A DNA stretch of 64,000 bases from Octopus vulgaris (lineage: Eukaryota). The DNA lies in contig OX597837.1 in the NCBI GenBank assembly GCA_951406725.2, positions 23,622,001 to 23,686,000 of the forward strand, given 5' to 3'. Positions 6,157-58,175 of the stretch are shown piece by piece. Within the stretch, counting starts at the first letter, position 1; each line of letters starts with the position of its first letter. The position numbers were made by a program, and so were the translations under genes. Below the pieces are notes generated by a model that saw only the letters and a program-made list of their open reading frames with translations, searched no databases and was not told where the DNA came from.

Positions 6157-7037
6157 TCATCATCATCACCATCATCATCGTTTAACGTCCATTTCCCATG
6201 CTAGCATGGGTTGGACAGTTCGACCGGGGTCTGGGAAGACAGGAAGCTGCACCAGGCTCCAGTCTGATCTGGCAGTATTCCTACAGCTAGATGCCCTTCC
6301 TAATGCCAACCACTCCATGAGTGTAGTGGGTGGTTTTTACGTACCACCGGCACAGGTGCCAGAGGAGGCTGGCTACGGCCACGATCGGTTGGTGCTTTTT
6401 ACTTGCCACCGGCACGGAAGCCAGTCAAGGTGGTGCTGGCATCGACCACATATGGATGGTGCTTTTTACGTGCCAGGGTAGGCTGGCAATGGCCATGATC
6501 GGTTGGTGCTTTTTACTTGCCACCGGCACGGAAGCCAGTCAAGGTGGTGCTGGCATCGACCACGTATGGATGGTGCTTTTTACGTGCCACCGGCACAGGT
6601 GCCAGGGTAGGCTGGCTACGGTCACTATCGGTTGGTGCTTTTTACTTGCCACCGGCACGGAAGCCAGTCAAGGTGGTGCTGGCATCGACCACGTATGGAT
6701 GGTGCTTTTTACGTGCCAGGGTAGGCTGGCAATGGCCATGATCGGTTGGTGCTTTTTACTTGCCACCGGCACGGAAGCCAGTCAAGGTGGTGCTGGCATC
6801 GACCACGTATGGATGGTGCTTTTTACGTGCCACCGGCACAGGTGCCAGGGTAGGCTGGCTACGGCCATGATCGGTTGGTGCTTTTTACTTGCCACCGGCA
6901 CGGAAGCCAGTCAAGGTGGTGCTGGCATCGACCACATATGGATGTTGCTTTTTACGTGCCACCGGCACAGGTGCCAGGGTAGGCTGGCAACGGCCACGAT
7001 CGGTTGGTGCTTTTTGTGTGCCACCGGCACGGAAGCC
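6157..7037 (-). mobile_element. Family C copy with internal tandem expansion
   Basis: Family C 3' end followed by about five repeats of a ~115-130 bp composite module (gccaccggcacggaagccagtcaaggtggtgctggcatcgaccac...). Confidence 0.85.
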
Positions 7038-7071
7038 ATACACACACACACATGTGTGAGTGTATGTATTA

Positions 7072-12689: not shown

Positions 12690-13520
12690 CATGGTTACTC
12701 TGCAGTGAGACCATGCCTCTGACAGTAGCTACTTAGTAGTTAGTCCTTCAGTGTGCTAGTGGCAATGATGTAATTAGCCTATGACAGAAGCTACACTGTA
12801 CTTAGACCATCTATTGGCTACGATGTAGTTAGCTCATCACACTGACATCAGTAGCTATGATGTTGTTAGCCCAGAGTACTTAATCTAGCACTGTAAGAGT
12901 ATCTATATTGTAGTTAGCCCTTCACAGTGACAGTAGCTACACTATACTTAGACCATTACTATACCAGTAGCTGTTATGTACTTAGCCAATCAAACTGACA
13001 GAAGCTACACTGTGCTTTGACCAGCACTTTGAAAGTAGCTATGATGTAGTTAGCCCTTCATACTGACAGTAGTTACACTATACTTAGACCATATCTATTT
13101 CAGTGTCTATAACGTAGTCTATAAGCCCATCACGCCGGCTGTAACTACATGGTACTTACGCCAGCATAGTGAGAGTAGCTATAACGTAGTTAGCCCTTCA
13201 TACTGACAGTAGTTACACTATACTTAGACCATATCTATTCCAGTGTCTATAATGTAGTAAGCCCATCACACCGGCTGTAGCTACATGGTACTTATGCCAG
13301 CATAGTGAAAGTAGCTATGATATAGTTAGCCCTTCATAGTGACAGTAGCTACCCCATACTTAGACTATTACTATGTCAGTGATTATGATATAGTTAGCCC
13401 ATCACACTGACAGAAGTTACACTGTACTTAAGCCTAGCACTGTGAGACAAGCTACAATGTAGTTGAAACACTACTGTAACAATAACAATAGTTACACTAT
13501 TGTCAGACCATTACTATGTA
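12690..13520. repeat. Degenerate ~34-bp minisatellite with ~136-140 bp higher-order unit
   Basis: gtagctat(g/a)a..tagttagcccttcata.tgacagtag recurs at ~13036, ~13175, ~13311. Confidence 0.75.
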
Positions 13521-19609: not shown

Positions 19610-20226
19610 GTGCGTGAGAAGACCCAGCAAGACCAGTGAGAACAGTCAGAATCAAAATCAAAATGAAAATCAAACCAAATCAAATCAGATATCAGAAAGC
19701 AGAACCAAAATTGAGGCCGATTAACATCAGTGGAAGTTGCAGCTGTGGTTAAGTGAACCATCCGATCGTCGTGTCCACTGCCAGCCTCGCCTGGCTCCCG
19801 TGCCGGTGGCACATAAAAGCACCATCCGTTCTTGTCCGTTGCCAGGCTCACCTGGCCCCCGTGCTGGTTGCACGTAAAAGCACCATCCGCTCACGTCCGT
19901 TGCCAGCCTCGTCTGGACCCCGTGCCGGTGGCACGTAAAACACCATCCGTTCGTGTCTGTTGCCAGCCTTGCCTGGCCCCCGTACCGGTGACACGTAAAA
20001 ACACCATCCGTTCATGGCCGTTTGCCAGCTCCGTCTGGCACCTGTGCGGGTGGCACGTAAAAAGCACCCACTACACTCACGGAGTGGTTGGCGTTAGGAA
20101 GGGCATCCAGCCGTAGAAACACTGCCAGATCTGACTGGGCCTGATGCGGCCTTCCGGCTTCACAGACCCCAGTTGAACCGTCCAACCCATGCTAGCATGG
20201 AAAACGGATGCTAAATGATGATGATG

Positions 20227-27764: not shown

Positions 27765-28869
27765 CACCATTCAAGCGTGGAAGGCCTGTTTTATAGCATC
27801 ATCGGTATTAAATTCTTTTCCTTTCAAAAAGTTAATCCAAATTCTGGAAGAAGTGGTAGTCAGTGGGAGCAAGATCAGGTGAGTATGGTGGATGATAGAG
27901 AACTTCCAACTACAACTCCTGTAGTTTCACCAATGTCATTTTTGCAATGTGTGGTCTGGCATTGTCTTGCAATAAAATAGGTGTGGATCTGTTGACTAAT
28001 CTAGGCTGGGTTATTTTTATAAGTTTCTGCATCATTTGGTCCAGTTGGCTGCAGTATACTTTGGCCATGATTGATGAGCCAGGTTTAATAAAATCATAAT
28101 GGATCACACCTGCACCAGACCACCAAACACTCACCTTCAGCTTCTTTTGATGAATTTGGCTTTTTGGACTGTGTTTTGGTGGCTCATCTTTGTCCAACCA
28201 TTGTGCTGAACGTTTACAATTGTATTGGATCCATTTCTTATTGCATGTTACAATTCGATTAAAAAATGATTCATTTTTGGAACGAGAAAATAGCATAATG
28301 CAGGCTTTCCAACGTTGCTGTTTCTGATTTTCTTTGAGTTCATGTGGAACCCACTTATCCAACTCTTTCACTTTACAGATTTGAACTAGGTGAGTCAATA
28401 TTGTTTGCTTGCTAACACCAAACAACAATGATAATTCATGGGCACTTTGAGAGGGATCTGACTCGATGGTGGCTTTCAGTTAATCATTATCCACCTTTGT
28501 TTCTGGTCGACCATGTTACTCATTTGTGAGGTCAAAGTTACCAGAACAAAATTTTGCAAACCAATTTGATACTGTCTGCTGTGTAATAACATTAGAATGA
28601 AATACTCCATTAATATTCTAAGCTGTCTGTGATGTTGTGTTTCCAAGAAAGAACTCATATTTCAAAACTACGAATTTCCAATTTATTCATCTCTAAACAA
28701 AAATAGCAAAAAACAATTTATAAAGCGCAAAATGAGTTAGAATAAAGAAATAGGTGTGTCAGCTTTCTAACAAAAAATAAAGATTGTCAAAATGTAATAA
28801 TGGTGCAAAATGAGCAGGTGTCAAAACTTACCATATACCTTACTACAGATTTCATACTTCACAACCTAA
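27765..28869 (-). pseudogene. Near full-length mariner (DD34D) transposase pseudogene with 5' TIR
   Basis: KWVPHELKE, RIVTCNKKWI, KKLKVSVWW, LLQDNARPH, HPPYSPDLAPTDYHFF; stops and frameshifts; TIR-like ttaggttgtgaagtatgaaatc at 28869-28848. Confidence 0.92.
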
Positions 28870-29145: not shown

Positions 29146-30254
29146 AAATGCTGGTTAGTGGAGTATCTTCAAAGAAAGATATAATTATATGAAACAGTTC
29201 AACAAAGCGTAAAACACAGTTTCATTTTGATAGGCACCACACTTCAGTATGGTATAGGAGTTTGGTATAGTCCTCATCATTTCTCAGATAGAGTTGACAG
29301 AAAATTCAATTTGATAAGGGACTGGACTTCAATTTGTTCACAGTCTCAATAACTAACTGTAGTGCATCATTCAACCTACCGTTCATATTTTTTTGCCATT
29401 AAATGCCGCCAGTGTGCCAAGCAATGGAGAGGGAATAAATCTAAATGATAAATAATCACTACTGTACTGTCAACAAATTTTCTTAACTGAAGGTATCAGT
29501 AAAGTGAAAATGTGAAAACGAATTTCTATGGATGGCATCAGAAAAGCATTATGGTATTCACAAAGAGAAGTTGATAGAGCAGAGTCAGATGACACATCTT
29601 TACTGGAGCAAATCTGGATCTAGTTCGTTTGGCTGCCAGCATTTCAAAAATTAAAGTTTATTGAAAATTTTAAAATTTGGCACATTAATATACCTTTCCA
29701 AGCTAAATTGTTGGAGTTATTCAACTTTTTCCAGAAAAATGTTTTTAGAATGTCATAGCGGTTTAAAGTTTGATCATTTTCACCAATTCAAGAAACACGA
29801 TTTCAAAGCTATCATTTTGTGCATGACTGCATATTTTGTCAACATCCTGAAAATAGCACTTGTGTTTTGATATGAAACCACAGAATTACGCACAACATAT
29901 AACCACTCATAATTTTTTTATTTTTCAGAGTTTGCAGAAAATTTTTACAAATTTGTATTCTACACATGTATTCTACACATGCATACAATTATGCTTTAAA
30001 AAAAAATTGTGGTGGAGCATGATTTAAGGTCTAGGCCTATTTGGCTGCTATTTTAGCACATATGACACCCATCTCAATGACTGTGTGACAAAAATAATCG
30101 ATCAATAAACAAGTCTGCTTTTTTAATACAAAGTGACGTCTCATGTGAGTAGTCAAATTGATAAAAGTACATCCTTATTCTAGGCATGCCTACGTATGAA
30201 TAAATGCAGACTTAATTTCTAAAAGTTCTTTCTCACGAAGGATTTTCTAGAAAT

Positions 30255-30500
30255 TTGCCCATTGCCCACCTGTAATTTGTCCATCGCTCACCTGTAATTT
30301 GTCCATCGCTCACCTGTAATTTCTCCATCGCTCACCTGTAATTTGTCCATCGCTCACCTGTCATTTGTCCATCTCTCACCTGTAATTTGCCCATCGCTCA
30401 CCTGTAATTTGCCCATCGCTCACCTGTAATTTGCCCATCGCTCACCTGTAATTTGTCCATCGCTTACTTGTAATTTGTCCATCGCTCACCTGTAATTTGA
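30255..30500. repeat. 22-bp minisatellite, ~11 copies
   Basis: (g(c/t)ccatcgctcacctgtaattt)n. Confidence 0.95.
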
Positions 30501-30625: not shown

Positions 30626-31208
30626 TACTCTTTAAATCTTTTATTTGTTTCAGTCATTTGACTGTGTCCATGATGGGGCACCACCTTTAGTCGCGCAAAT
30701 CGACCCCAAGACTTATTCTTTGTAAGCCTGGTACTTATTCTATCGGTCTCTTTTGCCGAACCGCTAAGTTACGAGGACATAAACACACCAGTATGTGTGT
30801 GTGCCATTCGTTTGTATACTCTTTTACTTGTTTCAGTCATCTGACTTTGGCCATGCTGGATCACTGCCTTTAGTTGAGCAAATCGACCCCCAGGACTTAT
30901 TCTTTGTAAGCCTAGTACTTATTCTACGGTCTCTTTTGTCGAACCGCTAAGTTACGAGAACATAAACACACCAGCATCAGTTGTCAAGCGATGTTGTGGG
31001 ACAAACGCAGAAGCTCAAACATATACGCACAAACATATACGCATATACATATATACGACGGGCTTCTTTCAGTTTCCGTCTCCCAAATCCACTCACAAAG
31101 CTTTGGTTGGCCTGAGGTTATAGTAGAAGAGACTTGCCCAAGGTGCCATGCTGTGGGACTGAACCCGGAACCACATGGCTCATAAGCAAGCTACTTACCA
31201 CACAGCCT
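30626..31208 (-). mobile_element. Family A partial tail copy plus full copy
   Basis: A tail 30626-30791 and A copy 30817-31208. Confidence 0.85.
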
Positions 31209-34089: not shown

Positions 34090-34860
34090 CCCTCCATGGT
34101 GCTCAGCCAGACTCTCCATGGTACAGAGCTGCACTCTTCATGGTGCTCGTTGGACTCTACATAATGTTTGGCTGGGTGCTCCATGGTTCTTGACTGAGTG
34201 CTCCATGGTTCTCGACTGAGTGCTCCATGGTTCTCGACTGAGTGCTCCATGGTTCTCGACTGAGTGCTCAATGGTTCTTGACTGAGTGCTCCATGGTTCT
34301 TGACTGAGTGCTCAGTGGTGCTCAGCCAGATGCTACATGGTGCTCACTTGAGCTGTCAATGGTGCTTAGCTGGACACTCAAGTTTGACTCTACGGTGCTC
34401 AGCCAGATGTTCCATGGTGCTCAGCTGGACTCTCCATGGTTCACAGTTGGACACTCCATGGTGCTCAGCTGGACTTTCCATGGTTCACAGTTGGACACTC
34501 CATGGTACAGAGCTGCACTCTTCATGGTGCTCAGTTGGACTCTCCATGATGTTTGACTGGGTGCTCCGTGGTTCTTGACTGAGTGCTCCATGGTGCTCAG
34601 CCAGATGTTCCATGGTGCTCAGCTGGACTCTCCATGGTGCTCAGTTGGACTCTCCATTGTACTCAGTCGAAATCTCTGTGGTGCTCAACTGGTCACTCCA
34701 TGATGCTCAATTAGACTCTCCATGATGATTAGCTATACATTCCAAGGTGCTCAGCTTGGCAATCCATGGTACTGCTTGGACTCTCAATGGTGATCATTTT
34801 GACTGTCCATGGTTCTCAGCTGGATTCTTCATGGTGCTCATTTGGACTGTTGTGCTCTGC
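34090..34860. repeat. ~22-bp minisatellite
   Basis: ctccatggttctcgactgagtg / ctccatggtgctcagctggact variants. Confidence 0.9.
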
Positions 34861-35359: not shown

Positions 35360-36150
35360 AGTTTGCTGTGCTTGAGAAGACTCACCAAGCTAAGTAAAAT
35401 TGTAATCTATGCATACAGGCATCCCTCTCTCAGCCAAGAGATCCTAGTCTTGTGGGCTCATGGATGCTGGTGCCACATAAAAGCACCTGTGCCTGTGCCA
35501 TATATTAGTGCCCGTGCTGGTGTCATGTAAAAGCATCTGTGCCACATAAAATCACCCATGTCAGTGCTACTTAAAAGTGCCTGTGTGACATAAAAGGGCT
35601 CATGCCAGTGTCACATAAAAGCACCTGTGCCAGTGTTACTAAAAGTGCCTCTGCAGTGCCACATAAAAGCACCCATGCTGGTGCCATGTGCCAGTGTCAC
35701 GTAAAAGTACCTGTGATTGTGTCACATAAAAGTATATGTGGAAGTGTCACATATCAGCACCCATGCTGGTGTCACAGAAAAGCACCTGTGCTGGTGTCAC
35801 ATAAAAGTGTCTGTGCCAGTGTCACATAAAGGTGCCCAAGCTGGTGTCACATAAAAATGCCTGTGACAATGCCACATATAAGCGTCCATGCTGGTGCCAC
35901 GTAACAGTGCCTGTGCTGGTGTCACATAGAAATGCCTGTGACAATGCTACGTATAAGCGCCCATGCTGGTGTCACAAAAGTGCCTGTACCGCTGTCACGT
36001 AAAAGCTGTAAAGTGGTTGGTCTTAGGAAGGGCATCCAACCATAGAAATCATGTCAAAGCAAATGGAGCCTGAGCAGCTCTCCAGCTGGCCAATTCCCGC
36101 CAAACTGTCTAACCCATGCTAGCATTTGAAAATGGATGTTAATTGATTAT
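35360..36150 (+). mobile_element. Old family C copy with ~25-bp degenerate tandem array
   Basis: (gtgccacataaaagcacctgtgct)-like units 35465-36003 then ttaggaagggcatcc tail. Confidence 0.75.
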
Positions 36151-40071: not shown

Positions 40072-40530
40072 TCTACTTGTGAAGACCTGTTGAGGCAAGT
40101 GAAAATCCAAGTCGAATTCGATCAACATCAATGGAAATTGCAGCTGTGATATCAGTGCCAGTGGTACGTAAGAGAACCATCCAAATGTGGCCGTTGCTAG
40201 TGCCGCCCCGACTGGCCTCGTGCTGGTGGCACGTAAAAAGCACCATCTGATGATGGGCGTTGCCAGCTTCACCTGGCCCCCGTGCCACTGGCACATAAAA
40301 AGCACCATCCAATTGTGGCTGTTTGCCAGCCGCGTCTGGCAACTGTGCCGGTGGCATGTAAAACGCACCCACTACACTCACGGAGTGGTTGGCATTAGGA
40401 AGAGCATCCAGCCGTAGAAACATTGCCAGATTAGACTGGGCCTGGTGCAGCCTTCTGGCTTCCCAGACCCCAGTTGAACCATCCAACCCATGCTAGCATG
40501 GAAAGCGGATGCTAAACGATGATGATGACG
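40072..40530 (+). mobile_element. Family C copy
   Basis: Internal modules plus conserved 3' end. Confidence 0.85.
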
Positions 40531-43639: not shown

Positions 43640-44090
43640 GAAGGCGGCGAGCTGGCAGAGACGTTATCACGCCGGGCGAAGTGCTTCACGGTATTTTGCC
43701 CGTCGCTACATTCTGAGTGCAAATTCCACCGAGGTCGACTTTGCCTTTCATCCTTTCGGGGTCGATAAATTAAGTACCAGTTATGCACTGGGGTCGATGT
43801 AATCGACTTAATCCGTGTGTCTGTCCTTGTTTGTCCCCTCTATGTTTAGCCCCTTGTGGGCAATAATGAAATAAGAAACGTTAGCACACCGGGCGAAATG
43901 CGTAGCCGTATTTCGTCTGCCATTACGTTCTCGGTTCAAATTCCGCCGAGGACGACTTTGGCTTTCATCCTTTCGGGGTCGATAAATTAAGTACCAGTTA
44001 CGCACTGGGGTCGATGTAATCGACTTAATCCGTGTGTCTGTCCTTGTTTGTCCTCTCTGTGTTTAGCCCCTTGTGGGTAGTAAGAAATAG
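43640..44090 (+). mobile_element. Head-to-tail dimer of SINE family B with one TSD
   Basis: Two B units (43642-43875, 43876-44090); TSD ataggtatg(t/c)tacagtg at 43623-43639 and 44087-44103. Confidence 0.88.
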
Positions 44091-47454: not shown

Positions 47455-47657
47455 TTGTGTGTCTGTGTTTGTCCCCCTAGCATTGCTTGACAACTGATGC
47501 TGGTGTGTTTATGTCCCCGTCACTTAGCGGTTCGGCAAAAGAGACCGATAGAATAAGTACTGGGCTTACAAAGAATAAGTGCCGGGGTCGAGTTGCTTGA
47601 TTAAAGGCGGTGCTCCAGCATGGCCGCAGTCAAATGACTGAAACAAGTAAGAGTAAG
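47267..47657 (+). mobile_element. SINE family A (slightly 5'-truncated)
   Basis: Homology to other copies. Confidence 0.9.
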
Positions 47658-47880
47658 GGTGTTTGGGGTAAATTTCATGATTTTTTTATGCCATCGTTTT
47701 GGGGAATAGCTCAATATAATGCTGAACAGTTGATGGTGTTGAAGAGCATAACGATTAAAGTTGTAGTTGAGAAAAAGTTAACTGATATGGAGGACTAGAA
47801 GCTATCTGAAGACTAGAAAAGAATCATCTGTATCATGATGATTTGTACCAGGTAAAAAATGCTTACATCATGACTACTGC

Positions 47881-48701
47881 TTAACCATTTCATTACTGTA
47901 TTTATTTTGAGATGCTCTGTGTTTCTTTCAATTAATTTTAAATATAACAAAGAATTTAGTAAAATAACTTAGTTATCATTAAGCTAATGTTAAGGACATA
48001 AATTGTGACTAAGGTTTGGTGGAAGATTTTAATTCAGAACTTTTGAAAACAAGACATTAGTACTACAGAGCCAGAGGTGGTTTCAGGTGGGTTGGTATCA
48101 AAATGGTTAAGTCAGGAAGAACTAGCAGTGGCCCAAGGTGTCTTCATATTTATGTATCGTTCATTTTTACATCTGTTTTAACACTTTTGTTACCATATTT
48201 CTGTTGAGAGACTGTGTTTCTTTCAATTAATTTTAAATGTAACAAAGAATTTAGTAAAATAACTTATTTATCATTAAGCTAGTGTTAGGACATAAATTGT
48301 GACTAAGGTTTGGTGGAAGATTTTAATTCAAAACTTATGAAAACAAAACATTTGTACTACAGAGCCACAGAGGTGGTTTCAGGTGGGTTGGTATCAAAAT
48401 GGTTAAGACAGGAAGAACCAGCAGTGGCCCAAGGTGTCTTCATATTTATGTATCATTCATTTTTACATCTGTTTTAACACTTTTGTTACCATATTTCTGT
48501 TGAGAGACTGTGTTTCTTTCAATTAATTTTAAATGTAACAAAGAATTTAGTAAAGTAACTTAGTTCTCATTAAGCTAGTGTTAGGAATATAAATTGTGAC
48601 AAAGGTTTGGTGGAAGATTTTAATTCAAAACTTATGAAAACAAAACATTTGTACTACAGAGCCACAGACGGTTTCAGCCGGGTTGGTATTGAAAGGGTTA
48701 A
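47881..48701. mobile_element. Three tandem TTAA-flanked MITE copies (~230 bp) with ~70-bp spacers
   Basis: ttaaccattt...aaatggttaa (47881-48110), repeated at ~48178-48406 and ~48474-48701. Confidence 0.8.
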
Positions 48702-51700
48702 TGCTCTGTGAATGCTGTAAAAGCTGTAAGATGGGACACAGGCAGTTGCAACAGAGACCACAAGTCTGCAGCCAGCAGGAAGGGATTCTGACAATGTCTG
48801 CACACGGGAATTTGGCTCCACGCCTTTGAACAGGGCCTTATGCTCAATTCAGATGACTATGTGAAGCTGCTGGAGACTGTGGTCAGTCAGTCCTTGGCTG
48901 GTGAGGGTTGCTGTTGGAAGGTAATGTTTTGCAGCTGGATTTGACTCCTTTGCCATACCTTCAAAAAGAATCAGAAGGATTTGACTCCTTTGCCATTCCT
49001 TCAGAAAGAATCAGAAGGATTTGACTCCTTTGCCATACCTTCAAAAAGAATCAGAAGGATTTGACTCCTTTGCCATTCCTTCAGAAAGAATCAGAAGGAT
49101 TTGACTCCTTTGCCATTCCTTCAGAAAGAATCAGAAGGATTTGACTCCTTTGCCATTCCTTCAGAAAGAGTCAGAAGGATTTGACTCCTTTGCCATACCT
49201 TCAAAAAGAGTCAGAAGGATTTGACTCCTTTGCCATACCTTCAAAAAGAGTCAGAAGGATTTGACTCCTTTGCCATTCCTTCAAAAAGAGTCAGAAGGAT
49301 TTGACTCCTTTGCCATACCTTCAAAAAGAGTCAGAAGGATTTGACTCCTTTGCCATACCTTCAAAAAGAGTCAGAAGGATTTGACTCCTTTGCCATACCT
49401 TCAGAAAGAGTCAGAAGGATTTGACTGCTTTGTCATACCTTCAAAAAGAGTCAGAAGGATTTGACTCCTTTGCCATACCTTCAAAAAGAGTCAGAAGGAT
49501 TTGACTCCTTTGCCATACCTACAGAAAGAATCAGAAGGATTTGACTCCTTTGCCATACCTTACAGAAAGAATCAGAAGGATTTGACTCCTTTGCCATTCC
49601 TTCAGAAAGAATCAGAAGGATTTGACTCCTTTGCCATTCCTTCAAAAAGAGTCAGAAGGATTTGACTCCTTTGCCATACCTTCAAAAAGAGTCAGAAGGA
49701 TTTGACTCCTTTGCCATTCCTTCAAAAGAGTCAGAAGGATTTGACTCCTTTGCCATACCTTCAAAAAGAGTCAGAAGGATTTGACTCCTTTGCCATTCCT
49801 TCAAAAAGAGTCAGAAGGATTTGACTCCTTTGCCATTCCTTCAGAAAGAGTCAGAAGGATTTGACTCCTTTGCCATACCTTCAGGAAGAGTCAGAAGGAT
49901 TTGACTCCTTTGCCATACCTTCAAAAAGAGTCAGAAGTATTTGACTCCTTTGCCATACCTTCAGAAAGAGTCAGAAGGATTTGACTCCTTTGCCATACCT
50001 TCAGGAAGAATCAGAAGGATTTGACTCCTTTGCCATGCCTTCAGAAAGAATCAGAAGGATTTGACTCCTTTGCCATTCCTTCAGAAAGAGTCAGAAGGAT
50101 TTGACTCCTTTGCCATACCTTCAAAAAGAGTCAGAAGGATTTGACTCCTTTGCCATACCTACAGAAAGAATCAGAAGGATTTGACTCCTTTGCCATTCCT
50201 TCAGAAAGAATCAGAAGGATTTGACTCCTTTGCCATTCCTTCAGAAAGAGTCAGAAGGATTTGTCTCCTTTGCCATACCTTCAAAAAGAGTCAGAAGGAT
50301 TTGACTCCTTTGTCATACCTTCAAAAAGAGTCAGAAGGATTTGACTCCTTTGCCATTCCTTCAAAAAGAGTCAGAAGGATTTGACTCCTTTGCCATACCT
50401 TCAGAAAGAGTCAGAAAGATTTGACTCCTTTGCCATACCTTCAAAAAGATACCTTCAAAAAGAGTCAGAAGGATTTGACTCCTTTGCCATACCTTCAAAA
50501 GAGTCAGAAGGATTTGACTCCTTTGCCATTCCTTCAGAAAGAATCAGAAGGATTTGACTCCTTTGCCATACCTTCAAAAAGAATCAGAAGGATTTGACTC
50601 CTTTGCCATTCCTTCAAAAAGAATCAGAAGGATTTGACTCCTTTGCCATTCCTTCAGAAAGAATCAGAAGGATTTGACTCCTTTGCCATACCTTCAGAAA
50701 GAGTCAGAAGGATTTGACTCCTTTGCCATTACCTTAAAGAATCAGAAGGATTTGACTCCTTTGCCATACCTTCAAAAAGAGTCAGAAGGATTTGACTCCT
50801 TTGCCATACCTTCAGAAAGAGTCAGAAGGATTTGACTCCTTTGCCATACCTTTCAAAGTTTGACTCCTTTGCCATACTTCAGAAGATCAGAAGGATTTGA
50901 CTCCTTTGCCATAAAAGAGTCAGAAGGATTTGACTCCTTTGCCATTACCTTCAGAAGGATTTGACTCTTTGCATACCTTAAAGAGTCAGAAGGATTTGAC
51001 TCCTTTGCCATACCTTCAGAAAGAGTCAGAAGGATTTGACTCCTTTGCCATACCTTCAAAAAGAGTCAGAAGGATTTGACTCCTTTGCCATACCTTCAGA
51101 AAGTCAGAAGGATTTGACTCCTTTGCCATACCTTCAAAGAAGAGTCAGAAGGATTTGACTCCTTTGCCATACCTTCTTTCAGAAGGATTTGACTCCTTTG
51201 CCATTCCTTCAGAAAGAATCAGAAGGATTTGACTCCTTTGCCATACCTTCAGAAGAGTCAGAAGGATTTGACTCCTTTGCACTTCAAAGATCAGAAGGAT
51301 TTGACTCCTTTGCCATACCTTCAGGAAGAGTCAGAATGATTTGACTCCTTTGCCATACCTTCAGGAAGAGTCAGAAGGATTTGACTCCTTTGCCATTCCT
51401 TCAGAAAGAGTCAGAAGGATTTGACTCCTTTGCCATACCTTCAGAAAGAGTCAGAAGGATTTGACTCCTTTGCCATACCTCGAAGATCAGAAGGTTTGAC
51501 TCCTTTGCCATACCTTCAGGAAGAGTCAGAAGGATTTGACTCCTTTGCCATTCCTTCAGAAAGAATCAGAAGGATTTGACTCCTTTGCCATACCTTCAGG
51601 AAGAGTCAGAAGGATTTGACTCCTTTGCCATACCTTCAGGAAGAGTCAGAAGGATTTGACTCCTTTGCCATACCTTCAAAAAGACTCGGAAGGATTTGAC

Positions 51701-54700
51701 TCCTTTGCCATACCTTCAGGAAGAGTCAGAAGGATTTGACTCCTTTGCCATACCTTCGGAAAGAGTCAGAAGGATTTGACTCCTTTGCCACTCCTTTGCC
51801 ATCCTTCAGAAAGTCAGAAGGATTTGACTCCTTTGCCATACCTTCAGAAGATCGACTCCTTTGCCTCCTCAGAAAGTCAGAAGGATTTGACTCCTTTGCC
51901 ATACCTTCAGGAAGAGTCAGAAGATTTGACTCCTTGCCATACCTTCAGAGAGTCAGGATTTGACTCCTTTGCCATACCTTCAGAAGGATTGACTCCTTTG
52001 CCATCCAAAGTCAGAAGGATTTGACTCCTTTGCCATACCTCATCAAGAAAGAGTCAGAAGGATTTGACTCCTTTGCCATACCTTCAGAAGAGTCAGAAAG
52101 AAAAGTTTGCTCCTTTGCCATTCTTCGAAAGAATCAGAAGGATTTGACTCCTTTCCATCCTTCAGAAGAGTCAGAAGGATTTGACTCCTTTGCCATACCT
52201 TCAGAAAGAGTCAGAAGGATTTGACTCCTTTGCCATACCTTCAGAAGAGTCAGAAGGATTTGACTCCTTTGCCATACCTTCAAAAAGAGTCAGAAGGATT
52301 TGACTCCTTTGCCATACCTTCAAAAGAGTCAGAAGGATTTGACTCCTTTGCCATACCTTCAAAAAGAGCCCTCAGAAGATCAGAAGGATTTGACTCCTTT
52401 GCCATACCTACAGAAAGAATCAGAAGGATTTGACTCCTTTGCCATACCTTCAGAAAGAGTCAGAAGGATTTGACTCCTTTGCCATTCCTTCAGAAAGAGT
52501 CAGAAGGATTTGACTCCTTTACCATACCTTCAGGAAGAGTCAGAAGGATTTGACTCCTTTGCCATTCCTTCAGAAAGAATCAGAAGGATTTGACTCCTTT
52601 GCCATACCTTCAAAAACAGTCAGAAGGATTTGACTCCTTTGCCATTCCTTCAAAAAGAGTCAGAAGGATTTGACTCCTTTGCCATACCTTCAAAAAGAGT
52701 CAGAAAGATTTGACTCCTTTGCCATACCTTCAAAAAGAGTCAGAAGGATTTGACTCCTTTGCCATACCTTCAGAAAGAGTCAGAAGGATTTGACTGCTTT
52801 GTCATACCTTCAAAAAGAGTCAGAAGGATTTGACTCCTTTGCCATACCTTCAAAAAGAGTCAGAAGGATTTGACTCCTTTGCCATACCTACAGAAAGAAT
52901 CAGAAGGATTTAACTCCTTTGCCATACCTACAGAAAGAATCAGAAGGATTTGACTCCTTTGCCATTCCTTCAGAAAGAATCTGAAGGATTTGACTCCTTT
53001 GCCATTCCTTCAAAAAGAGTCAGAAGGATTTGACTCCTTTGCCATACCTTCAAAAAGAGTCAGAAGGATTTGACTCCTTTGCCATACCTTCAAAAAGAGT
53101 CAGAAGGATTTGACTCCTTTGCCATACCTTCAAAAAGAGTCAGAAGGATTTGACTCCTTTGCCATTCCTTCAAAAAGAGTCAGAAGGATTTGACTCCTTT
53201 GCCATTCCTTCAGAAAGAGTCAGAAGGATTTGACTCCTTTGCCATACCTTCAGGAAGAGTCAGAAGGATTTGACTCCTTTGCCATACCTTCAAAAAGAGT
53301 CAGAAGTATTTGACTCCTTTGCCATACCTTCAGAAAGAGTCAGAAGGTTTTGACTCCTTTGCCATACCTTCAGGAAGAATCAGAAGGATTTGACTTCTTT
53401 GCCATGCCTTCAGAAAGAATCAGAAGGATTTGACTCCTTTGCCATTCCTTCAGAAAGAGTCAGAAGGATTTGACTCCTTTGCCATACCTTCAGAAAGAGT
53501 CAGAAGGATTTGACTCCTTTGCCATACCTTCAAAAAGAGTCAGAAGGATTTGACTCCTTTGCCATACCTTCAGGAAGAGTCAGAAGGATTTGACTCCTTT
53601 GCCATACCTTCAAAAAGAGTCAGAAGGATTTGACTCTTTTGCCATACCTACAGAAAGAGTCTGAAGGATTTGACTCCTTTGCCATACCTTCAGAAAGAGT
53701 CAGAAGGATTTGACTCCTTTGCCATACCTTCAAAAAGAGTCAGAAGGATTTGACTCCTTTGCCATACCTTCAGGAAGAGTCAGAAGGATTTGACTCCTTT
53801 GCCATACCTTCAAAAAGAGTCAGAAGGATTTGACTCCTTTGCCATACCTACAGAAAGAATCAGAAGGATTTGACTCCTTTGCCATACCTTCAGAAAGAGT
53901 CAGAAGGATTTGACTCCTTTGCCATTCCTTCAGAAAGAGTCAGAAGGATTTGACTCCTTTGCCATACCTTCAGGAAGAGTCAGAAGGATTTGACTCCTTT
54001 GCCATTCCTTCAGAAAGAATCAGAAGGATTTGACTCCTTTGCCATACCTTCAAAAACAGTCAGAAGGATTTGACTCCATTGCCATACCTTCAGAAAGAGT
54101 CAGAAGGATTTGACTCCTTTGCCATACCTTCAAAAAGAGTCAGAAGGATTTGACTCCTTTGCCATACCTTCAGGAAGAGTCAGAAGGATTTGACTCTTTT
54201 GCCATACCTTCAAAAAGAGTCAGAAGGATTTGACTCCTTTGCCATTCCTTCAGAAAGAGTCAGAAGGATTTGACTCCTTTGCCATACCTTCAAAAAGAGT
54301 CAGAAGGATTTGACTCCTTTGCCATACCTTCAGGAAGAGTCAGAAGGATTTGACTCCTTTGCCATACCTTCAGAAAGAGTCAGAAGGATTTGACTCCTTT
54401 GCCATACCTTCAAAAAGAATCAGAAGGATTTGACACCTTTGTCATACCTTCAAAAAGAATCAGAAGGATTTGACTCCTTTGCCATACCTTCAAAAAGAAT
54501 CAGAAGGACTTGACTCCTTTGCCATTCCTTCAGAAAGAGTCAGAAGGATTTGACTCCTTTGCCATACCTTCAAAAAGAATCGGAAGGATTTTACTCCTTT
54601 GCCATACCTACAGAAAGAGTCAGAAATGGTTGTTGGAGAACTTCTATGATTTTACCAGCCCAATTGTAATCCCATGGATTGCTATGTGTGCAGTGAGGTT

Positions 54701-54966
54701 GAGAAAGACCTCAACTGCTCTGTCTGCAACATCAACACTGAGCTGGTGGTTAAGGTCTCACCAGGGACTCATTAAAGAATTCATGCACCAGGTTCTGGAG
54801 CCATTCCGAGGCCATGGTGGAGGCTGAGGGAAACTACTTTGAGTAAACTGTTACCTCCCAGTCGTAATCTAGTTGATATTTATTGATTTTTAAAAAACTT
54901 TTTGGATTGGATATTGTGTTTGTTTTTCCATTTATACAAACAGTCAAATTCAGCCTGAACACCCTA
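48702..54966 (+). pseudogene. maT/DD37D-like Tc1-mariner transposase relic interrupted by a satellite
   Basis: Left flank HAFEQGLMLNSDDYVKLLETVV..PWLVRVAVGR..VLQLDLTP; right flank CHTYRKSQKWLLENFYDFTSP..NCNPMDCYV..EVEK..CTRFWSHSEAMVEAEGNYFE*; TIR-like end cctgaacaccct at ~54965. Confidence 0.8.
48937..54625. repeat. 40-bp tandem satellite, ~140 copies
   Basis: Monomer ggatttgactcctttgccat(a/t)ccttca(a/g)aaaga(g/a)tcagaa. Confidence 0.98.
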
Positions 54967-55047
54967 TTCATAAAAATATACAAACTTCCATGAACTTCAT
55001 ATCTATGTTACAACATGAGGCTACATATTAAATAAGGAACAAAAAAA

Positions 55048-55330
55048 GACCCCCCTCCTTTGGTCCTGAATGACCATGGGATTGCACATCCAAAGCACAA
55101 GTCCAGGCAAGGTTGTTTATGGAGAACCAGCAGTCGCCCATGCTTACCAGTCTCTCCTCTCCATGCCATCAATGTTATCCAAGGGAGAGGCAAAGGCCAA
55201 TACAGCTTGGCACCAGTGATGTTGCAACTCATTTCTACAGCTGAGTGAACTGAAGCTATGTGAAATAAAGTTTCTTGCTCAAGAACACAACACACAGCCT
55301 GGTTCAGGAATCAAACTCACTACCTCATGG
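55048..55330 (-). mobile_element. SINE family E
   Basis: Reverse complement matches 38396-38726. Confidence 0.8.
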
Positions 55331-55424
55331 AGAAGGTAAAATATATGTGGCTGTTAGTGCTTTTGACTTTGTGGTGTACTGGAGATGAAATGGATAACTA
55401 CTGGTGCCTTGTACATTATTACAT

Positions 55425-55568
55425 TATTTACATTTGAGTGATATTTGTCCTCATCTTGTTTGTTGTTAACATGTTTTGACTGATATACCCTCCAGCCTTC
55501 ATCAGGAGTCTTGGGGAAATTTCAAACCTGGGTTCTCATTCCTAAAGTATTTTTCAATGTTGTTTTTG

Positions 55569-57730: not shown

Positions 57731-58175
57731 CATCATCGTTTAACGTCCGTTCTTCATGCTAGCATGGGTTGGACGGTTTGACTGTGGTCTGGGAAGCCAG
57801 AAGGCTGCACCAGGCTCCAGTCTGATCTGGCAGTGTTTCTACAGCTGGATGCCTTTCCTAATGCCAACCATTCCGTGAGTGTAGTGGGTGCTTTTTACGT
57901 GCCAGGCGAGGCTGGCAACGGCCACGATCGGATTGGTGCATTTTACGTACCACCGGTATGGAAGCCAGTCTAGGCGGCACTGGCATTGGCCACAATTTGG
58001 TTGGTGCTTTTTACGTGCCACCGGCACGGAAGCCAGTCTAGGCGGCGCTGGCATCTGCCACGTTCGGATGGTGCTTTTTACGTGCCACTGGCACAGGTAT
58101 CACAACTACTATTTCCATTTGATATTTATTTCGATGTTCATGTACTTGACTCGATAGGTCTCCTCAAGCACAGCA
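57730..58175 (-). mobile_element. Family C copy
   Basis: (cat)n cgtttaacgtccg... plus internal modules. Confidence 0.85.

Follow-up and report, generated by a model that had tools for sequence, protein, structure and literature searches.

The closest described system is CficCl-61-40 of Chenopodium, a ~40-bp satellite from the tnp2 transposase of the CACTA element Jozin (Belyayev et al. 2020, PMC7320549). As described there, its unit comes from the transposase-coding domain of a deletion derivative, the array is attached in the same orientation, and it reaches 94 units in one contig. The array analysed here, which lies in a 64,000-nucleotide stretch of Octopus vulgaris DNA (the window), is alike in the origin of its unit and in its orientation. 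The two differ in setting: CficCl-61-40 belongs to a plant CACTA element and forms a genome-wide family (0.25-3.8% of the genome) with the tnp2 fragment as start monomer (PMC7320549), whereas the octopus array occupies one locus in an animal Tc1/mariner element of the DD37D type and retains both coding flanks and both TIRs. Since a 40-bp transposase-derived satellite has already been published (PMC7320549), a coding or catalytic origin does not in itself make the octopus array special.

Other precedents are known from vertebrates. At least 7,276 (23%) of human minisatellites and satellites are TE-derived (Ahmed and Liang 2012, PMC3389668). Single-locus minisatellites of mammals, such as the Alu-derived ones and mouse Ms6-hm and Hm-2 in MaLR LTRs, resemble the octopus array in that an internal segment of one dead TE copy has expanded locally, and also in the short flanking direct repeats that have been proposed as the minisatellite seed (PMC6947457). 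These named mammalian examples come from retroelements, whereas the octopus array comes from the coding region of a DNA transposon and, with ~143 units, is long for a minisatellite. The Xenopus satellite in the MITE miDNA4 likewise forms a tandem array within a Tc1/mariner element, with microhomology invoked (PMC12628747, PMC9659126), but there a captured repeat is present in many MITE copies, whereas the octopus array is transposase-derived and confined to one locus. Satellites from TE open reading frames and from the middle portions of DNA transposons appear in the reviews (PMC9659126, PMC12628747). A limited literature search found no array derived from a Tc1/mariner transposase, and Table 1 of PMC9659126 may contain further cases.

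From the evidence given below, the octopus array is probably a minisatellite confined to one locus, where 40 bp of a DD37D (maT-type) Tc1/mariner copy that had long been dead expanded on the spot, likely by neutral slippage and then by unequal exchange.

The array and its host element

The window spans C24:23622001-23686000 of a repeat-rich 2.8-Gb genome. TRF, run on the window, reported a tandem array with a period of 40 and 144 copies at 48937-54625. This corresponds to ~143 head-to-tail units on the + strand and bears out the ~140-copy, 5.7-kb array of 40-bp units that had originally been predicted. The transposase query for tblastn was P0001, a 349-aa protein that was the one match among 291 candidates of a protein search; aa numbers refer to it. 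The features of the locus are as follows:

47656-47678, + strand: decayed left TIR of the host Tc1/mariner copy, alignable with the right end in reverse complement
47787-47884, + strand: 5′ end of the transposase coding sequence, with stops; 47787-47852 correspond to P0001 aa 1-22 at 64%
47881-48701, no strand assigned: nested non-autonomous element with TTAA at both ends and an internal 296-bp tandem repeated 2.7 times
48702-48936, + strand: left coding flank (tblastn), with aa 34-61, ~aa 62-210 deleted, and aa 211-249 with frameshifts
48937-54625, + strand: minisatellite of ~143 40-bp units, derived from the D2 region of the transposase (codons 250-262) with an extra T
50417-52385, no strand assigned: indel-rich middle of the array, 26/49 units off-length vs 2/37 and 0/56 in the end blocks
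54626-54846, + strand: right coding flank (tblastn, sequence), aa 263-349, with aa 275-281 deleted and a further deletion
54940-54966, + strand: right TIR (alignment); an orthologous contig (X10, below) crosses it into unique flank

The host element extends over about 47656-54966, and thus begins near 47656 instead of at 48702, where its left limit had been placed. The tip of the left TIR abuts the end of a SINE-like repeat, and the family form of the TIR is present in 11 relatives with both ends. The nested element splits the transposase gene and is found with the same ends and different flanks at other loci; we take these ends to be piggyBac-like. The deletion of ~aa 62-210 took out the first catalytic Asp. 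The D3 codon lies at 54677-54679 and the stop codon at 54844-54846. Measured against the commonest letter of each family column, the left flank is 14.2% diverged (17/120, 48813-48936), the unit 15.4% and the right flank 14.7%, with a mean of 15.8% for the relatives. This equal decay of flanks and unit fits amplification after decay. Since the host copy is ~15% diverged, lacks the first catalytic Asp and carries a nested TTAA-flanked element, it was long dead.

As a separate observation, the number of internal tandem units in the nested element varies among its copies. The best 22 non-self matches to a 293-bp query from it, which cover most or all of the query, are all on C24 within ~7 Mb (~22.5-29.1 Mb, L108-L113), and for copies on other contigs the match begins only near query position 63. 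The five insertions that were examined have different flanks. On these alignments, the element looks like a regionally confined subfamily that may be spreading by local hopping.

P0001 carries D158, D250 and D288, with 37 residues between D2 and D3. This maT-type spacing is also found in two relatives, L082 and L083; in the host copy, a frameshift and the loss of aa 275-281 interrupt the spacer. Published maT elements measure ~1.2-1.3 kb, encode a transposase of ~346-350 aa with a D2-D3 gap of 37 residues, and have TIRs of 13-48 bp (bioRxiv 10.1101/2022.10.13.512200). The host family is alike in element size, ~350-aa transposase, 37-residue spacing and short TIRs, as seven of the 11 relatives with both ends are 1208-1333 bp long (the other four are 721-875 bp), P0001 has 349 aa, and the family TIRs are ~25 bp; the host copy, in contrast, is a non-coding fossil. 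P0001 matched the Pfam domain PF13358 (DDE_3) with E 1.3e-4 and 22.2 bits, which is below the cut-off of 28.6. TA, the target-site duplication of Tc1/mariner elements, stands at 8/11 left and 8/11 right ends of the relatives, and the ends of the host copy itself are decayed. By catalytic spacing, size and TIRs, the host is assigned as a DD37D (maT-type) Tc1/mariner copy.

Among the 116 transposase matches that were scored of 37,708 candidates, two were full-length without stops, and these represent a sister family at 53% protein identity; no intact copy of the host family was found among the 116. The two sister-family loci, L082 (G000:C10:7983392-7984408) and L083 (G000:C26:35668854-35669870), have stop-free DD37D frames of 351 and 359 aa and share 89% DNA identity. 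Two identical-scoring transposase matches at G000:C14:63229446-63231371 are arranged head-to-head, which may reflect an inverted duplication of recent date or an artefact of assembly. Within the window, another mariner fragment is present at 27913-28479 on the - strand (PF01359, Transposase_1, E 7.6e-24). This fragment was the one match in a Pfam scan of the 114 complex open frames of at least 75 aa in the window, a scan that short exons would escape.

Collinearity with transposase copies and occurrence in the genome

The array flanks and unit were aligned with 19 dispersed copies fetched as loci. The left flank with the first unit, and the last unit with the right flank, matched adjacent stretches of the same copies, overlapping at the unit; in copy L003, for instance, the left side matched 1158-1435 and the right side 1404-1809. 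tblastn with P0001 showed the same arrangement: aa 211-262 matched the left flank with the unit, aa 254-349 matched the last unit with the right flank (E 7e-24), and the pieces of P0001 mapped across the locus in order. The prediction that the flanks read as one degenerate transposase across the monomer was thereby borne out. These collinear alignments and the single-locus junction described below likewise support the proposed origin in place from the transposase-coding DNA of a DD37D/maT-type element.

Unit and codons are in register. The D2 codon is 48938-48940, and the unit starts one base before it. As had been predicted, the unit falls on the motif at D2, but it reads D-L-T-P and then shifts to the +1 frame, so that the motif is decayed. 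The extra T of the array unit is absent from 18/19 aligned relatives. The whole segment homologous to the unit was present in 37/60 loci of the family or its sister family, once in each, and it was 39 bp long (13 codons) in 28 of them. In a search of the genome with the right flank, 40 of 1,905 candidates were scored, and 39 of these were matches elsewhere, with identities of 70-82%; the 19 aligned copies come from this set.

Birth from the catalytic core, as claimed, holds in so far as the origin is coding, yet nothing about it is special. Since 594/845 bases (70%) of the host remnant are coding-derived, a coding origin is the default expectation, and 76/806 possible 40-mers of the remnant (~9%) would contain D2 or D3. 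The overlap of the unit with a catalytic Asp codon is therefore likely due to chance and without meaning at the protein level.

A degenerate pattern of the junction between units had 91 exact matches in the 2.8-Gb assembly, and 91/91 lay inside the array, which supports a single locus. A six-unit query gave 42 DNA matches, 30 of them in the array and 12 elsewhere, the latter each of a single unit (43-51 bp). No second array or junction hotspot was found elsewhere with the one degenerate exact pattern, which diverged independent arrays could escape. Classical satellites are abundant or form long or multi-locus arrays, and here there is one 5.7-kb locus in the 2.8-Gb assembly, beside which unassembled arrays may exist; the head-to-tail units of 10-100 bp, collinear with an internal TE segment, are those of a TE-derived minisatellite. 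After three duplicate loci had been dropped, TRF found arrays of at least three copies inside the transposase spans of 0/60 family or sister-family loci (51 kb of span), and only two 2-copy duplications, of 14 and 18 bp. Matches to dispersed repeats in at least five of 60 loci were obtained for 7/13 other arrays of the window that were tested. TE-derived tandems are routine in this genome, and it is its size that sets the array at 48937-54625 apart.

Among the other arrays of the window, those at 6329-7038, 19772-20068, 40219-40369, 57912-58094, 30637-30974 and 43657-44089 are short and built from pieces of dispersed repeats, with matches in 5-17/60 independent loci. Those at 12898-13464, 30252-30499, 34168-34848 and 35464-36006 are older minisatellites with units of 22-68 bp and little or no match in the 60 sampled loci.

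The locus in other individuals and species

Contigs from sequencing runs were compared over two units plus the right flank. Of 20 runs that contain this stretch or part of it, four were used: X1 (organism A), X3 (organism B), X5 (organism C) and X10 (organism E), from four studies and under four species labels; X10 was the only one taken from the small-share DNA runs. For 54546-55540, no RNA run was listed as containing the sequence, which says nothing on expression. X1 is perhaps related to the source of the assembly. The summed contig depth of the junction bin, divided by that of the family-only bin, was 0.36 in X1, 0.27 in X3, 1.53 in X5 and 0.0013 in X10; relative to the single-copy flank, the junction-bin depth was ~170, ~60, ~720 and ~0.7, respectively, and neither ratio is a copy number. 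Since the tandem junction occurs at high depth under three species labels, the array is real and not individual-specific.

The orthologous contig of X5 differs at 17/486 letters (3.5%) and begins within the last unit, exactly 30 bases in. A 31-mer graph would be expected to break at this point on entering a tandem array, and the assembly graph of the run contigs was built, as we assume, with k = 31. The orthologous contig of X10 differs at 15/188 letters (8%). It runs through the TIR and on into unique flank, so the insertion predates the split from organism E, which has the insertion and shows no high-depth tandem-junction signal. The array thus likely arose after the split from organism E (8%) and before that between A and C (3.5%), when the element would already have been mostly decayed. 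Loss of the array in organism E is a possible alternative: the X10 contig stops short of the array site, contigs show presence and not absence, and no orthologous allele in the unexpanded state was seen. The idea that the array is young is weakened by the occurrence of the junction under three species labels, by orthologous flanks up to 3.5% apart and by block duplications inside the array.

Over 54546-54579, X5 exceeds X1 about fourfold in the ratio of junction-bin depth to single-copy flank. This hints that organism C may have a much larger array, with the reservation that contig depth is not copy number.

Birth and growth of the array

Imperfect short direct repeats (CAGxAG-like) at both unit ends may have allowed the slippage that gave the first duplication. 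In the commonest letters of the family, this microhomology amounts to 6/8, a value reached by 653/16,891 random junctions (3.9%); the assembled ends of the host copy itself reach only 3/8, and individual relatives 2-6/8. The value of 6/8 fits the flanking-repeat slippage model modestly.

A small hairpin, formed by a 6-bp inverted repeat, may have aided this step. Taken further, the D2 segment would be a structural hotspot, in which mutations specific to this copy made a hairpin between short direct repeats that triggered expansion, rather than chance. The inverted 6-mer pair is found in most array units and in 1/37 relatives, and its stem covers positions 6-37 of the 40-bp unit. For the commonest unit, the fold energy is -5.3 kcal/mol, a stability reached by 0/37 relatives on the + strand and 4/37 on the - strand, and a fold of four units gave z = -2.2. 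Hairpins together with short direct repeats promote polymerase slippage in vitro (PMC4134008). However, the gain in stability is small and was noted post hoc at one locus only: the array mean of -3.2 is within one SD of that of the relatives (-2.2 +/- 1.3), the stem is broken in several common units, which barely fold, and ~17% of 40-mers in two stretches adjoining the array reach -4.5. The fixed derived changes could also have spread by homogenisation after birth. Help from a hairpin is a weak lead, and we regard the hotspot as possible but doubtful.

Later growth would have proceeded by block duplication through unequal exchange or conversion. Split into units, the array gave 142 anchors and 59 distinct units. 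Mean pairwise identity is 94.5% among the 114 full-length units, and most of the difference between units resides in five variable columns. A block of 18 units is repeated 84 units further on (score 24; as high in 0/1000 shuffles), which fits unequal exchange. In the string of unit types, a second, shorter block recurs inside the clean right block. The homogeneity that had been ascribed to the array is true of both ends but not of its middle, given the off-length units there (26/49). The middle, 50417-52385, is probably a poorly polished long-read consensus, and the exact length of the array is uncertain for that reason. The longest stop-free run in the array, in six frames, is 94 aa, and the 40-bp unit is not a multiple of 3, which rules out a repeat-encoded protein.

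The same middle might mark an array that is real but overstated or scrambled by assembly, for example two haplotype alleles of ~60 units each joined via unpolished sequence. The near-unchanged recurrence of the left block 84 units later, the few substitutions lying in the right copy, would suit such a join as well as the off-length units do. Yet the sequence before and after the shared block differs between the two copies, the second recurrence lies within the clean right block, as real turnover would give, and the X1 junction-bin depth is ~170 times that of single-copy flank (again not a copy number). We therefore hold a join of this kind to be unlikely.

It was also suggested that the array yields small RNAs against the transposon family, as a functional piRNA or siRNA source. 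Its unit is ~85% identical to the family's commonest letters (6/39 differ), and copies of the family are very numerous, with 1,905 DNA candidates at first look. The suggestion is not supported: no intact family member is present among the 116 scored matches, the two intact sister-family frames match the unit at 22-23/40 bases and share words of at most 7-8 nt with it, the same sequence is already available from thousands of dead copies, and a head-to-tail array gives no long double-stranded RNA from one strand. Such a role would seem very improbable. An origin from an older satellite unit, which the transposon would have received by insertion or captured as Tc1/mariner MITEs such as miDNA4 capture tandem repeats (PMC12628747), is scarcely credible, with the unit in register with transposase codons 250-262, single in 37 dispersed copies and without a further array found in the genome, and is largely refuted by the collinear alignment.

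Growth in place from a piece of a dead transposable element is a known way of tandem-repeat birth, and the octopus array is likely a clean and datable case of it, with no new kind of system and nothing that indicates a function. A bolder version, which we entertain only tentatively, is that one dead mariner copy acquired mutations of its own, which created a hairpin of unit length between short direct repeats and so triggered a more than 100-fold expansion after one species split, in a datable single-locus birth. If this were true, one would expect the empty allele, and arrays that vary greatly in size, in related species, and the seed state could be read directly. The locus combines features that rarely come together: both parental flanks are intact, thousands of unexpanded paralogues exist, and related species bracket the event. 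With this combination, it could serve to test flanking microhomology against a hairpin as the seed of a minisatellite.
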